From contig QCOV01000001.1 in NCBI GenBank assembly GCA_003212795.1, positions 624,893 through 688,892 of the forward strand: a stretch of DNA of 64,000 bases, given 5' to 3'. Source of the DNA: OCS116 cluster bacterium AG-435-F03. GTDB taxonomy: Bacteria; Pseudomonadota; Alphaproteobacteria; MED-G09. A program made the position numbers and the translations under genes. Shown piece by piece: positions 27,916 through 29,175 of this stretch. The notes beneath the pieces are model-generated. The model searched no databases and was not told the origin of the DNA. It worked only from the letters and a program-made list of their open reading frames with translations. How positions within the stretch are numbered: position 1 is the stretch's first letter; the number at the start of each line of letters is the position of its first letter.

Positions 27916-29175
27916 TTATCTAATAATAACTGGAAGGTGAGAAAAACCTTTTACAAAGCTCGATCTGATTCTAATTGGTTCACCAACAACTTCTATGTTT
28001 TCAAATCTTTTCATTATTTCTTCCCACAGAATTTCTAACTGCATATCAGCTAATCTATTTCCTACACATCTATGAATTCCAAAACCATATGATAAATGGC
28101 TTCTTGGTCTTTTCCTATCAATTATAAAGCTGTTTGGGTTTTCAATTACATCTTCATCTCTGTTTCCTGACACATACCACATTACTACTTTGTCACCTTT
28201 TCTAATTAGTTTTCCTCCCAATTCATAATCTTCAAGAGCAGTTCTTCTCATGTAAGCCAGTGGTGTTTGCCATCTAATGATTTCAGGAACCATAGTTTTA
28301 ATTAAAGAATGATCTTTTCTTAATTTATCATATTGATCAGGATTTTGATTTAAGACCAAAATGCCTCCTGTCATAGAATTTCTTGTTGTATCATTACCTC
28401 CAACTATAAGTAGAATTAAATTACCTAGATACTCCATTGGATCCATATCACGTGTGCTAGGGTTGTGAGCCAGCATAGAAATTAAGTCAGTTTTAGGTTC
28501 AGAGTTAACTCTTTCATTCCATAGTTTAGTAAAATATTGAAGACATTCAAATAACTCTTCTTTTCTTTGCTCTTCTGTTTCAACTATTCCATCGCCAGGT
28601 CTAGCAGTAGAAACATCTGACCATCTTGTTAATTTCATTCTATCTTCAAAAGGAAAATCAAATAAAGTAGCTAGCATTCTTGTTGTTAATTCAATGGAGA
28701 CATCCTCTACCCAATTAAATTCTTTATTTATTGGAAGGTTATCTAAAACCTCGGCTGTTCTCTCTCTAATAAGGTCTTCCATATTAGCAAGATTACTGGG
28801 AGCAACTACAGGATTAACAGCTTTTCTTTGTATATCATGCTTAGGTGGGTCCATCGCAATAAACATAGGTGTAGTGAAATCTTCTTGAGGATCAAATAAA
28901 GTTATAGCTCCTTCTGATGAAAAAACTTTATGATTGGTATCCACACTCATTATATCTTTGTATTTAGTAATTGACCAATAAGGCCCTACATCCTCAACAC
29001 ATGATTCAGCACAATAATGAACTGGGTCCTCTTTTCTTAATCTTTCAAATAATGGAAAAATTGCATCTCCATACATAAAGATGTCAGAGTTTGCCATATC
29101 AATTTTTTCTATGGGTATTGAATAAGGATCCATTTCTGGACTCCAAACATCTGGACGAAGAAGTTCTTTAAGCAT
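27916..29175 (-). CDS. cytochrome P450, CYP153-like (alkane/alkyl hydroxylase family)
   Basis: 419 aa with heme loop [24 protein letters not shown] and the N-terminal region [10 protein letters not shown]...[25 protein letters not shown], both matching CYP153 signatures as I remember them. The 3' end overlaps the upstream gene by 8 nt. Confidence 0.8.
   Translation of the reverse strand: [419 protein letters not shown]

Follow-up and report, generated by a model that had tools for sequence, protein, structure and literature searches.

In the 64-kb stretch of DNA analysed here (the window), an ORF at 27916..29175 on the minus strand, with an ATG start, encoded a protein of 419 aa, at the coordinates and length that the first-pass annotation had given. 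The ORF contained no frameshifts or internal stops, its product matched the Pfam p450 model (E 5e-26), and together with the PDB matches and the tree this identified a full-length CYP153A cytochrome P450 gene. The gene was located inside a conserved chromosomal oxidation island, tightly packed between the genes for a CoxL-like molybdenum (Mo) subunit and a flavin reductase. The stop of the former (29168..31480, minus strand) overlapped the CYP153A ATG by 8 nt. It encoded a Mo hydroxylase large subunit of the xanthine dehydrogenase/CoxL family (Pfam Ald_Xan_dh_C, MoCoBD_1 and MoCoBD_2) with the AYRGAGR 'form II CoxL-like' motif at residue 367. All its NCBIfam matches were below cut-off, and its PDB matches were CoxL and 6-hydroxypseudooxynicotine dehydrogenase (about E-112). 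No gene for a small (2Fe-2S) or medium (FAD) Mo-hydroxylase subunit was detected in the 64-kb window. The flavin reductase gene (27435..27911, minus strand) began 4 nt past the CYP153A stop and encoded a 158-aa NAD(P)H:flavin reductase of the HpaC/StyB/PheA2 type (Pfam Flavin_Reduct, E 5e-26), with NCBIfam matches to FerA, StyB and HpaC below cut-off and PDB matches to two-component reductases.

The next gene on the minus strand (26980..27429) encoded a 149-aa protein that had no Pfam or NCBIfam match. This protein, possibly a hydrophobic-ligand binder, was a paralogue of a 150-aa SRPBCC (Polyketide_cyc2-like) protein encoded at 24166..24618 on the same strand (Pfam, E 1.1e-6), as indicated by cross-matches of approximately 50% identity in the loci. 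Between the two was a gene for a TonB-dependent outer-membrane receptor (24649..26934, minus strand; Pfam Plug and TonB_dep_Rec_b-barrel). The island also encoded a type I Baeyer-Villiger monooxygenase (BVMO) with the FNGPCFHSSRWP fingerprint (21520..23127, plus strand; Pfam FMO-like and Pyr_redox_3), which was conserved with the island, an Fe-dependent alcohol dehydrogenase (Fe-ADH; 17777-18919, minus strand; Pfam, NCBIfam) and an esterase of the hormone-sensitive-lipase family with HGGG and GDSAG motifs (18920-19840, minus strand; Pfam, NCBIfam). A Rieske oxygenase alpha subunit, short-chain dehydrogenases/reductases (SDRs), an acyl-CoA ligase, beta-oxidation enzymes and two P450s besides CYP153A completed the set. 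One of these P450s, unrelated to CYP153A (33774..34940, minus strand; 388 aa; Pfam p450), headed the same co-directional gene array, and its best PDB match reached just 166 bits, with matches scattered over many families. A promoter and terminator scan of the array gave as many hits as shuffled sequence would be expected to, the DNA being AT-rich.

A phmmer search of the PDB with the 419-aa protein returned CYP153 enzymes as the top 13 matches. The scores were 610 bits for 7ANT, 599 for 6HQG, 596 for CYP153A7 (3RWL), 466–481 for A33-type enzymes and 401 for CYP153D17; the first three aligned across residues 16-418 with E-values from 3e-182 to 5e-178, well outside what chance would give. Outside CYP153, scores did not exceed 260 bits for CYP125, 187 for CYP124 and 173 for P450terp, and the next P450 family (CYP125/124) thus reached less than half the bits of the CYP153A matches. 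The two other P450s of the window, taken as an internal control, reached PDB scores of no more than 166 and 132 bits, with mixed families. Under P450 nomenclature, an identity of at least 40% denotes the same family and >55% the same subfamily. The protein shared 66.2% identity with CYP153A7 (394 aligned columns, residues 19-416; E 5e-178), placing it in family CYP153 and subfamily A, and 67.5%, 66.7% and 59.4% with three more solved CYP153A-type structures, 7ANT, 6HQG and 6HQD, respectively (approximately 395 columns).

In a rooted neighbour-joining (NJ) tree of 95 sequences with 200 bootstraps, for which the window's two other P450s were the only outgroups and from which CYP124, CYP125 and CYP108 sequences were absent, the CYP153 sequences split from the outgroups in 200/200 replicates. 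Inside CYP153, the window protein grouped with its orthologues from seven related loci (L001-L007) in 177/200 replicates and nested among 3RWL, 7ANT, 6HQG and 6HQD, although with two distant outgroups it fell inside the most recent common ancestor of these four solved CYP153As in just 134/200. The full-length match to CYP153A7 and the grouping with CYP153 bore out the first-pass placement in this family, and refined it to subfamily A. Membership of CYP125, CYP124, CYP107 or CYP101 was rejected on similarity, given 596–610 bits for CYP153A versus at most 260 for CYP125 and 187 for CYP124.

The first-pass annotation had also regarded 419 aa as shorter than typical and suggested a trimmed N-terminus, a view that the length data overturned. 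The protein aligned from residues 16-19 to 416-418 with the solved CYP153A chains, which are 418-426 aa long and whose own aligned part began at about residue 15-21 and ran through to the C-terminus. Among 88 CYP153A genes from 80 genomes, lengths ranged from 409 to 433 aa with a mode of 420, and nearly all of the 120 closest database homologues had 419-420 aa at 100% coverage. In the Marinobacter-type enzymes of approximately 470 aa, residues 54-464 paired with residues 11-416 of the window protein, so the difference reflects an N-terminal extension of approximately 43 residues in those enzymes and no trimming here. The N-terminus was conserved in relatives, and the length was that of a full P450 fold (about 410-470 aa) without truncation, which ruled out a truncated N-terminus. 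That the protein is not a CYP153 at all, but CYP107-, CYP101- or CYP125-like, or that it is a truncated or decaying copy, is therefore a negligible prospect. It could draw only on the earlier impression of shortness relative to 470 aa and on the NCBIfam result, where the best match was a SolI P450 (476 bits, under the cut-off) in a collection that holds no CYP153 model. Against it stand the gap in bit scores, with families other than CYP125/124 at 173 or below, the 66% identity to CYP153A7 and the unanimous bootstraps; decay is contradicted by the intact reading frame, the end-to-end alignment with the solved enzymes and the uniform length of the homologues.

The signature elements of CYP153 were present, namely the (F/Y)GFGIHRCxG loop with its Cys, the I-helix motif and the N-terminal MFIAMDPP, all strings that recur in solved CYP153As. 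The classical degenerate primers for CYP153 target the heme loop and the I-helix motif. The heme-binding loop (Y363-G372; 28060..28089, minus strand) supplied Cys370 as the thiolate ligand and carried Tyr instead of the usual Phe at position Cys-7. The string quoted for this loop by the first-pass annotation was correct from its second residue onward (23 letters, from residue 364) and wrong at the first, where the protein has Tyr and not Phe: the loop reads YGFGIHRC, and 'FGFGIHRC' occurs nowhere in the protein. The two N-terminal strings that it had quoted were found verbatim (EDPVHYC at residue 49, a 25-letter string at residue 64). Among the 120 closest homologues, Cys-7 was Tyr in 23 and Phe in 97, and Tyr363 is a real lineage variant. 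A second substitution, an Arg/Lys-to-Glu charge reversal at E381 in the L-helix, shortly past the Cys ligand, was fixed in the clade. Both are small departures from the CYP153A norm.

The oxygen-activation motif of the I-helix (G259-G260-N261-D262-T263-T264; 28384..28401, minus strand) was identical in the four solved CYP153A sequences. The MFIAMDPP motif (residues 104-111; 28843..28866, minus strand) followed a B-C loop of the short type and was identical in 7ANT and 6HQG, while 3RWL and 6HQD carry 3+5-residue insertions just upstream of it. The EXXR motif (E298xxR301) was present, followed by WQTPL at 302. By alignment coordinates, the G307 hot spot of CYP153A33 probably maps to G259 and its L354 to L306, and these omega-selectivity hot spots appear unchanged (PMC9112060). 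The protein is thus a genuine, full-length CYP153A and an ordinary member of a well-known family.

The host was a marine alphaproteobacterium of the OCS116 type, related to marine "Rhodobiaceae"/OCS116 MAGs, and the window's 32.8% GC and 93% coding density agreed with the AT-rich, streamlined alphaproteobacterium that had been deduced from the sequence. Orthologues were found in marine Rhodobiaceae/OCS116/TMED MAGs and single-amplified genomes (e.g., PBRS01000024.1 and QCGV01000001.1), where they are annotated 'cytochrome P450' and uncharacterised; database clusters of the orthologue comprised hundreds of member sequences. The orthologous proteins were 78-96% identical and shared the gene neighbourhood, with synteny kept across at least 13 loci, down to 78% identity. 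The nearest DNA was approximately 87% identical to the window. The TonB receptor gene was variable in the relatives, present in L003-L005, L084-L086 and L089 and, unlike in the window, absent from L001 and L002, as well as from L006 and L007. A mobile-element or horizontally transferred origin was not supported, as the GC content matched the rest of the window and the island occupied the same chromosomal position (on the ThrRS side) throughout the clade. An intact gene with all catalytic motifs is thus vertically inherited in conserved synteny in this marine OCS116-type clade. Alphaproteobacterial CYP153A genes have previously been seen in marine metagenomes (PMC4021335).

From homology and context we infer the chemistry, the substrate, the identity of the electron donor and the pathway links. 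The gene very probably encodes a functional full-length CYP153A monooxygenase that would act as a class I enzyme, hydroxylating the terminal position of medium-chain alkanes or alkyl chains, with redox partners encoded at an unlinked site. A capacity for alkane or alkyl omega-hydroxylation, which the first-pass annotation had also suggested, is plausible, its support being the conserved residues at the selectivity hot spots of CYP153A33. As in other CYP153A enzymes, a soluble class I P450 would receive two electrons from NAD(P)H, one at a time, via an FAD-containing ferredoxin reductase (FdR) and a small iron-sulfur ferredoxin (Fdx) to the heme. Oxygen activation at the heme iron would be assisted by the D262/T263 pair of the I-helix. 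A medium-chain alkane or alkyl chain would lie in a narrow tunnel of the active site, with its terminal methyl group exposed to omega-hydroxylation. The Fe-ADH and the SDRs of the island could then oxidise the primary alcohol so formed, and the CoxL-like Mo enzyme possibly the aldehyde, before the acyl-CoA ligase and the beta-oxidation enzymes would take over; the BVMO and the esterase may form a parallel subterminal route. Candidate substrates are phytoplankton or cyanobacterial C15-C17 alkanes or the alkyl chains of lipids.

'Alkane' as the substrate is not secured, because the substrates of CYP153A members extend to fatty acids, alcohols, terpenes and heterocycles. CYP153A6, for example, hydroxylates limonene and CYP153A7 hydroxylates N-benzylpyrrolidine. 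It is possible, if the less probable choice, that this true CYP153A acts on fatty acids or alcohols, on isoprenoids or terpenes, or on some other phytoplankton lipid that would enter through the TonB-dependent receptor encoded nearby and be handled by the SRPBCC proteins, in which case 'alkane hydroxylase' would be an over-reading. With its receptor, two SRPBCC proteins, BVMO, esterase, Rieske alpha subunit and two further P450s, the island resembles a broad lipid and terpenoid oxidation toolkit and not a dedicated alk operon; neither alkB nor an AraC-type regulator nor an alkane-specific uptake gene was seen in it. To our knowledge, however, all characterised close relatives accept medium-chain alkanes, and the unchanged residues at the omega-selectivity hot spots also count against this alternative. 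CYP153A33 favours fatty acids and alcohols (PMC3815936, PMC9112060). The non-alkane alternative overlaps with the preferred reading, omega-hydroxylation of medium-chain alkanes or alkyl chains, because the chemistry is identical.

Native CYP153A enzymes require an FdR and a [2Fe-2S] Fdx (PMC3815936). By Pfam, no gene for a ferredoxin, rubredoxin or ferredoxin reductase was found in the 64-kb window, and a scan of all ORFs of at least 50 aa detected no ferredoxin, rubredoxin or CoxS cysteine motifs. Likewise, no Fdx or FdR gene was found within ±10 kb of CYP153 in any marine-clade locus. The redox partners must thus be encoded elsewhere in the genome, and the electron supply of the enzyme is assumed. 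Adjacent Fdx and FdR genes, missing here, are a typical accessory trait of the CYP153 three-component system, frequent though not universal, and do not define the P450 family. Only approximately 12 of 80 related loci had an adjacent 2Fe-2S ferredoxin gene, and some 68 of the 80 alphaproteobacterial CYP153A loci were without adjacent Fdx/FdR, so their absence here is not unusual. A crude FdR regex gave 0 matches over the 80 loci, even beside ferredoxin genes, and was probably too strict.

An alternative that we regard as very unlikely is that the flavin reductase, whose gene starts 4 nt past CYP153A, takes the place of FdR and Fdx and feeds electrons to the P450, possibly with help from the CoxL-like Mo protein, whose gene is translationally coupled. 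The order Mo subunit–CYP153–flavin reductase was kept in every marine-clade locus examined (L001-L007, L081-L086, L089-L090), with the 8-nt overlap and 4-nt gap here, and the orthologue group of the reductase was confined to this clade, always after CYP153, its nearest outside relatives standing in unrelated contexts. Three P450 genes in 64 kb yet no Fdx or FdR gene, and the clade-specific charge reversal at E381, also fit such a replacement. We know of no P450 system that uses a PF01613 flavin reductase. These reductases hand reduced free flavin to two-component flavin monooxygenases (the nearest structures being PheA2, HpaC and StyB), and a luciferase-like FMN monooxygenase (LLM) in the L003-L005 cluster would be a conventional client. 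Moreover, the reductase has diverged much more rapidly than the P450 (42-93% versus 78-96% identity), the lack of adjacent partner genes is common to most alphaproteobacterial loci, and the adjacency may just reflect the strong overall synteny of the region. Redox partners encoded elsewhere remain the preferred reading. That CYP153A, strictly conserved and closely packed in this clade with the CoxL-like Mo subunit and the HpaC-type flavin reductase, represents a new way of powering a P450 is a long shot at best. If true, the flavin reductase and/or the orphan Mo subunit, which might recycle electrons from aldehyde oxidation, would provide a streamlined electron supply in a reduced genome.

The luciferase-like gene of L003-L005 was considered as a LadA-type long-chain alkane monooxygenase, an identity that was not supported; it encodes a generic FMN-dependent LLM (best PDB match 7BIP, 98 bits). 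An ancestral module of LLM and flavin reductase was likewise not supported, since Caulobacteraceae loci carried a 60%-identical LLM beside CYP153 without a flavin reductase within 10 kb. The LLM–flavin reductase pairing was unsupported beyond L003-L005.

Aerobic alkane consumers in the short-term hydrocarbon cycle of the ocean are counted mainly by two marker genes, of which CYP153 is one (PMC13488336, PMC10176705). With the present gene, the conserved core chromosome of an alphaproteobacterial lineage that is abundant, uncultured and streamlined is seen to carry an intact CYP153A, which modestly widens the candidate consumers of cyanobacterial and phytoplankton hydrocarbons beyond the usual Gammaproteobacteria. 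It leaves knowledge of the CYP153 enzyme family unchanged; novelty could come only from the absence of redox partner genes and from the flavin reductase conserved next to the P450.

Among known systems, the best overall matches were 7ANT/7AO7 and 6HQG (E 3e-182 and 4e-179), deposited as 'Cytochrome P450', which we take to be CYP153A enzymes, one of Polaromonas and the other of an alphaproteobacterium. Both have a B-C loop of the short type, like the window protein, and differ from it in their hosts, in a 3-residue insertion near residue 393 (7ANT) and in a 6-residue indel near residue 200 (6HQG). CYP153A33 of Marinobacter aquaeolei (Maqu_0600; PDB 5FYF/5FYG) aligned over its core with residues 11-416 (471 bits), whereas it has 470 aa with the N-terminal extension, and its gene is flanked by those for a dedicated ferredoxin (Maqu_0599) and ferredoxin reductase (Maqu_0601; PMC3815936), neither of which has a counterpart near the window gene. 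CYP153A7 (P450pyr, 'alkane hydroxylase 1') from Sphingopyxis/Sphingomonas sp. HXN-200 differed in the 3+5-residue insertions of its B-C loop, in Phe at Cys-7 (Tyr in the window protein) and in Arg at the position of E381. CYP153A7 is biochemically characterised. The two proteins share a length of approximately 420 aa, an alphaproteobacterial origin and common sequence in the I-helix and in the heme-loop/L-helix region.

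The CYP153A gene (27916..29175, minus strand) has an ATG start and encodes a 419-aa product, in which Pfam detected a P450 domain (E 5e-26). In a search against all PDB chains, the 13 best matches were all CYP153 enzymes. Scores were 610 bits for 7ANT, 599 for 6HQG, 596 for 3RWL (CYP153A7), 531 for 6HQD, 466–481 for the Marinobacter-type CYP153A33 group (470–480 aa), 401 for CYP153D17 and 362 for 6HQW. The next family, CYP125, reached only 207–260 bits, and CYP124 and P450terp about 170–187 bits. The other two P450s of the window, at 33774–34940 (−; 388 aa, P450b) and 11961–13334 (+; 457 aa), served as an internal control. 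They resembled solved P450s only weakly and without a clear family preference, scoring 166 and 132 bits, respectively, with matches across many families. Over approximately 395 columns, the identity of the window protein was 66.2% with CYP153A7, 67.5% with 7ANT, 66.7% with 6HQG and 59.4% with 6HQD. By convention, P450 families are delimited at 40% identity and subfamilies at 55%, both of which are exceeded by the value for CYP153A7. In a neighbour-joining tree of 95 sequences, which included 88 CYP153 genes from 80 GTDB-representative genomes and four solved structures, with the two other P450s as outgroups, the split between CYP153 and the outgroups recurred in 200/200 bootstraps. The window protein was placed with seven related loci (L001–L007) in 177/200 bootstraps, nested among solved CYP153As. 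The scores, identities, tree placement and motifs (see below) therefore bear out the CYP153 membership proposed by the first-pass annotation, and a placement outside the family was not seen.

The first-pass annotation had also read the length of the protein as a trimmed N-terminus, which did not hold. The best-matching solved CYP153A chains have 418–426 aa, and the 88 genome-derived CYP153A proteins have 409–433 aa with a mode of 420. The 120 closest homologues (419–420 aa) aligned at 100% coverage, which takes in the first 15 residues. Solved CYP153A chains, from residues 15–21 to the C-terminus, align with residues 16–19 to 416–418 of the window protein, and residues 54–464 of the 470-aa enzymes align to residues 11–416. 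The 470-aa enzymes are thus extended by about 43 residues; the window protein represents the standard short form.

All catalytic signatures were intact: MFIAMDPP (residue 104), the I-helix motif (G259–T264), the K-helix E298xxR301 (residues 298–301), WQTPLA (residues 302–307) and the thiolate loop with Cys370. The two N-terminal strings quoted earlier were found verbatim (EDPVHYC at residue 49, the second, of 25 letters, at residue 64). The quoted heme-loop string matched in all letters after the first, which is Tyr in the protein, and the loop does not contain FGFGIHRC. This residue, Y363 (codon 28087–28089), stands at Cys-7, where Phe is near-universal. Tyr is a genuine variant of a sub-lineage, shared by 23 of the 120 closest database homologues, the other 97 having Phe. 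Only nine positions were fixed in the marine clade (OCS116-type relatives) and rare elsewhere, none of them in the hallmark motifs. The most notable is E381 (codon 28033–28035) in the L-helix, 11 residues past the Cys ligand, where Glu is fixed in the clade and non-clade CYP153As have Arg or Lys (80/85). Y363 and E381 may influence the heme potential or the docking of redox partners.

The CYP153A gene belongs to an array of ten co-directional genes spaced −8 to 47 nt apart. In order, these encode P450b, a glycerol kinase, a class II aldolase, a molybdenum-hydroxylase large subunit (Mo subunit), CYP153A, an HpaC/StyB-type flavin reductase (27435..27911, minus strand), an SRPBCC-like protein, a TonB-dependent receptor, an SRPBCC protein and an APH-family kinase. 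Close to the array are genes for a type I Baeyer–Villiger monooxygenase (BVMO), two SDRs, an HSL-family esterase, an Fe-ADH, another SDR, a Rieske oxygenase alpha subunit, a nitronate-monooxygenase-like protein, the third P450 and a fatty-acyl-CoA ligase. The arrangement of the array, anchored beside ThrRS, was kept in all marine-clade loci examined (L001–L007, L081–L086, L089–L090). The CYP153A island therefore belongs to the core chromosome rather than being mobile; its GC content is in line with the rest of the window. The TonB-dependent receptor (24649–26934, minus strand), between two paralogous SRPBCC-like genes, was variable: it was present in the window, L003–L005, L084–L086 and L089, and absent in the closest relatives, L001 and L002, and in L006 and L007. 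SRPBCC copy number also varied among marine-clade loci. All of these loci encoded a conserved 263-aa protein (35796–36587, minus strand, in the window) between NAD kinase and CoA-transferase, which had no Pfam or NCBIfam match. In L081 (11402–14806 of the 1.44-Mb contig JBJLFN010000002.1), the flavin reductase was shortened, at 131 aa, and both the BVMO gene and the Rieske gene were in fragments, which could be due to long-read frameshift errors or real pseudogenisation.

The Mo subunit (29168–31480, minus strand) belongs to the XDH/CoxL family and has an AYRGAGR 'form II CoxL-like' motif at residue 367. Its stop codon overlaps the CYP153 ATG by 8 nt (ATGCTTAA), and the CYP153 stop is followed by the flavin reductase ATG after 4 nt. 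No gene for a small (2Fe-2S) or medium (FAD) subunit was found anywhere in the 64 kb. The Mo subunit is an orphan, translationally coupled to CYP153, with a position conserved throughout the marine clade.

Native CYP153As work as class I systems, dependent on an FAD ferredoxin reductase and a [2Fe-2S] ferredoxin, as in the Maqu_0599–0601 operon (PMC3815936; PMC4021335). Cysteine motifs of the 2Fe-2S, 3Fe/4Fe-4S, rubredoxin and CoxS types were not detected in window ORFs of at least 50 aa, and Pfam identified no ferredoxin or ferredoxin reductase among essentially all annotated window ORFs. Neither gene was found within ±10 kb in the marine-clade loci. Since a 106-aa 2Fe-2S ferredoxin was immediately adjacent in only about 12 of 80 related loci, mostly gammaproteobacterial, the window locus is not exceptional in this respect. 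The two further P450s and the Rieske oxygenase alpha subunit (15660–16856) were likewise without nearby redox-partner genes. Most simply, CYP153A and the two other P450s would be served by ferredoxin and reductase genes that are unlinked and possibly shared.

That the flavin reductase and/or the Mo subunit powers the P450 in place of the ferredoxin pair is very improbable. The flavin reductase can be explained conventionally: structurally it is closest to the reductases of two-component flavin monooxygenases (PheA2, HpaC, StyB), its closest homologues outside the clade are stand-alone genes in unrelated contexts, and it evolves much faster than the P450 (42–93% versus 78–96% identity). A conventional client for such a reductase, a luciferase-like FMN monooxygenase (LLM) of about 415 aa, occurs in one sub-lineage (L003 8745–9998, L004 8733–9974 and L005 8721–9974, all plus strand), where its gene is inserted between those of the Mo subunit and CYP153; it is absent from the window. 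LadA was considered as its identity and rejected, as the protein is not LadA-like. An LLM was also found in L045, L059 and L076, and a 60% identical copy beside CYP153 in Caulobacteraceae points to a recurrent LLM–CYP153 association. However, these Caulobacteraceae loci had no flavin reductase within 10 kb, which confines the reductase–CYP153 pairing to the marine clade.

By homology, the heme would be bound through Cys370, O2 would be activated with the I-helix D262/T263 pair, and the terminal methyl of a medium-chain alkane or alkyl chain would be hydroxylated. The selectivity hot spots of CYP153A33, G307 and L354 (PMC9112060), would correspond by alignment coordinates to G259 and L306 here, both unchanged. 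Neighbouring genes would support a terminal route from alcohol through aldehyde and acid to acyl-CoA, as well as a subterminal route with the BVMO (21520–23127, plus strand; fingerprint FNGPCFHSSRWP) and the esterase (18920–19840, minus strand; HGGG and GDSAG motifs) of the same island. A BVMO with an esterase is the classical combination for oxidising alkanes or ketones subterminally. Equally, a fatty acid, alcohol or isoprenoid could be the substrate, so 'alkane hydroxylase' is best taken as a family label rather than a demonstrated phenotype.

The nearest loci were from marine MAGs and SAGs (96–78% protein identity) labelled Rhodobiaceae bacterium, Alphaproteobacteria bacterium or OCS116 cluster bacterium; NCBI taxonomy lists OCS116 under Alphaproteobacteria incertae sedis. 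As the window has a GC content of 32.8% and is 93% coding, the description of the host as an AT-rich streamlined alphaproteobacterium is reasonable. The DNA identity with the closest representative, about 87% over 21 kb, points to separate species within one lineage. The window also contains rpoB, ribosomal-protein, tuf and tRNA genes (rpoB, rplL/J/A/K, nusG, tuf and tRNA-Trp, Gly, Tyr and Thr at 579–9200 and 13405–13480), which directly adjoin the catabolic island and are useful taxonomic markers.

The ecological meaning is modest: the gene marks a candidate oxidiser of hydrocarbons or lipids among abundant streamlined Alphaproteobacteria. For the CYP153 family it means little, unless the P450 is powered by its conserved neighbours, the flavin reductase or the Mo subunit. 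We found no literature tying CYP153 specifically to OCS116; the one paper that mentions both draws no connection between them in its title or abstract. CYP153 is a routine marker of marine alkane consumers (PMC13488336, PMC10176705, 10.1101/2024.01.20.576437). Alphaproteobacterial-type CYP153A genes, including Parvibaculum-like ones, were already reported from marine metagenomes (PMC4021335), and orthologues with 78–96% identity have been deposited in MAGs and SAGs as "cytochrome P450". The window gene is therefore a new, uncharacterised representative of a well-known kind of enzyme.
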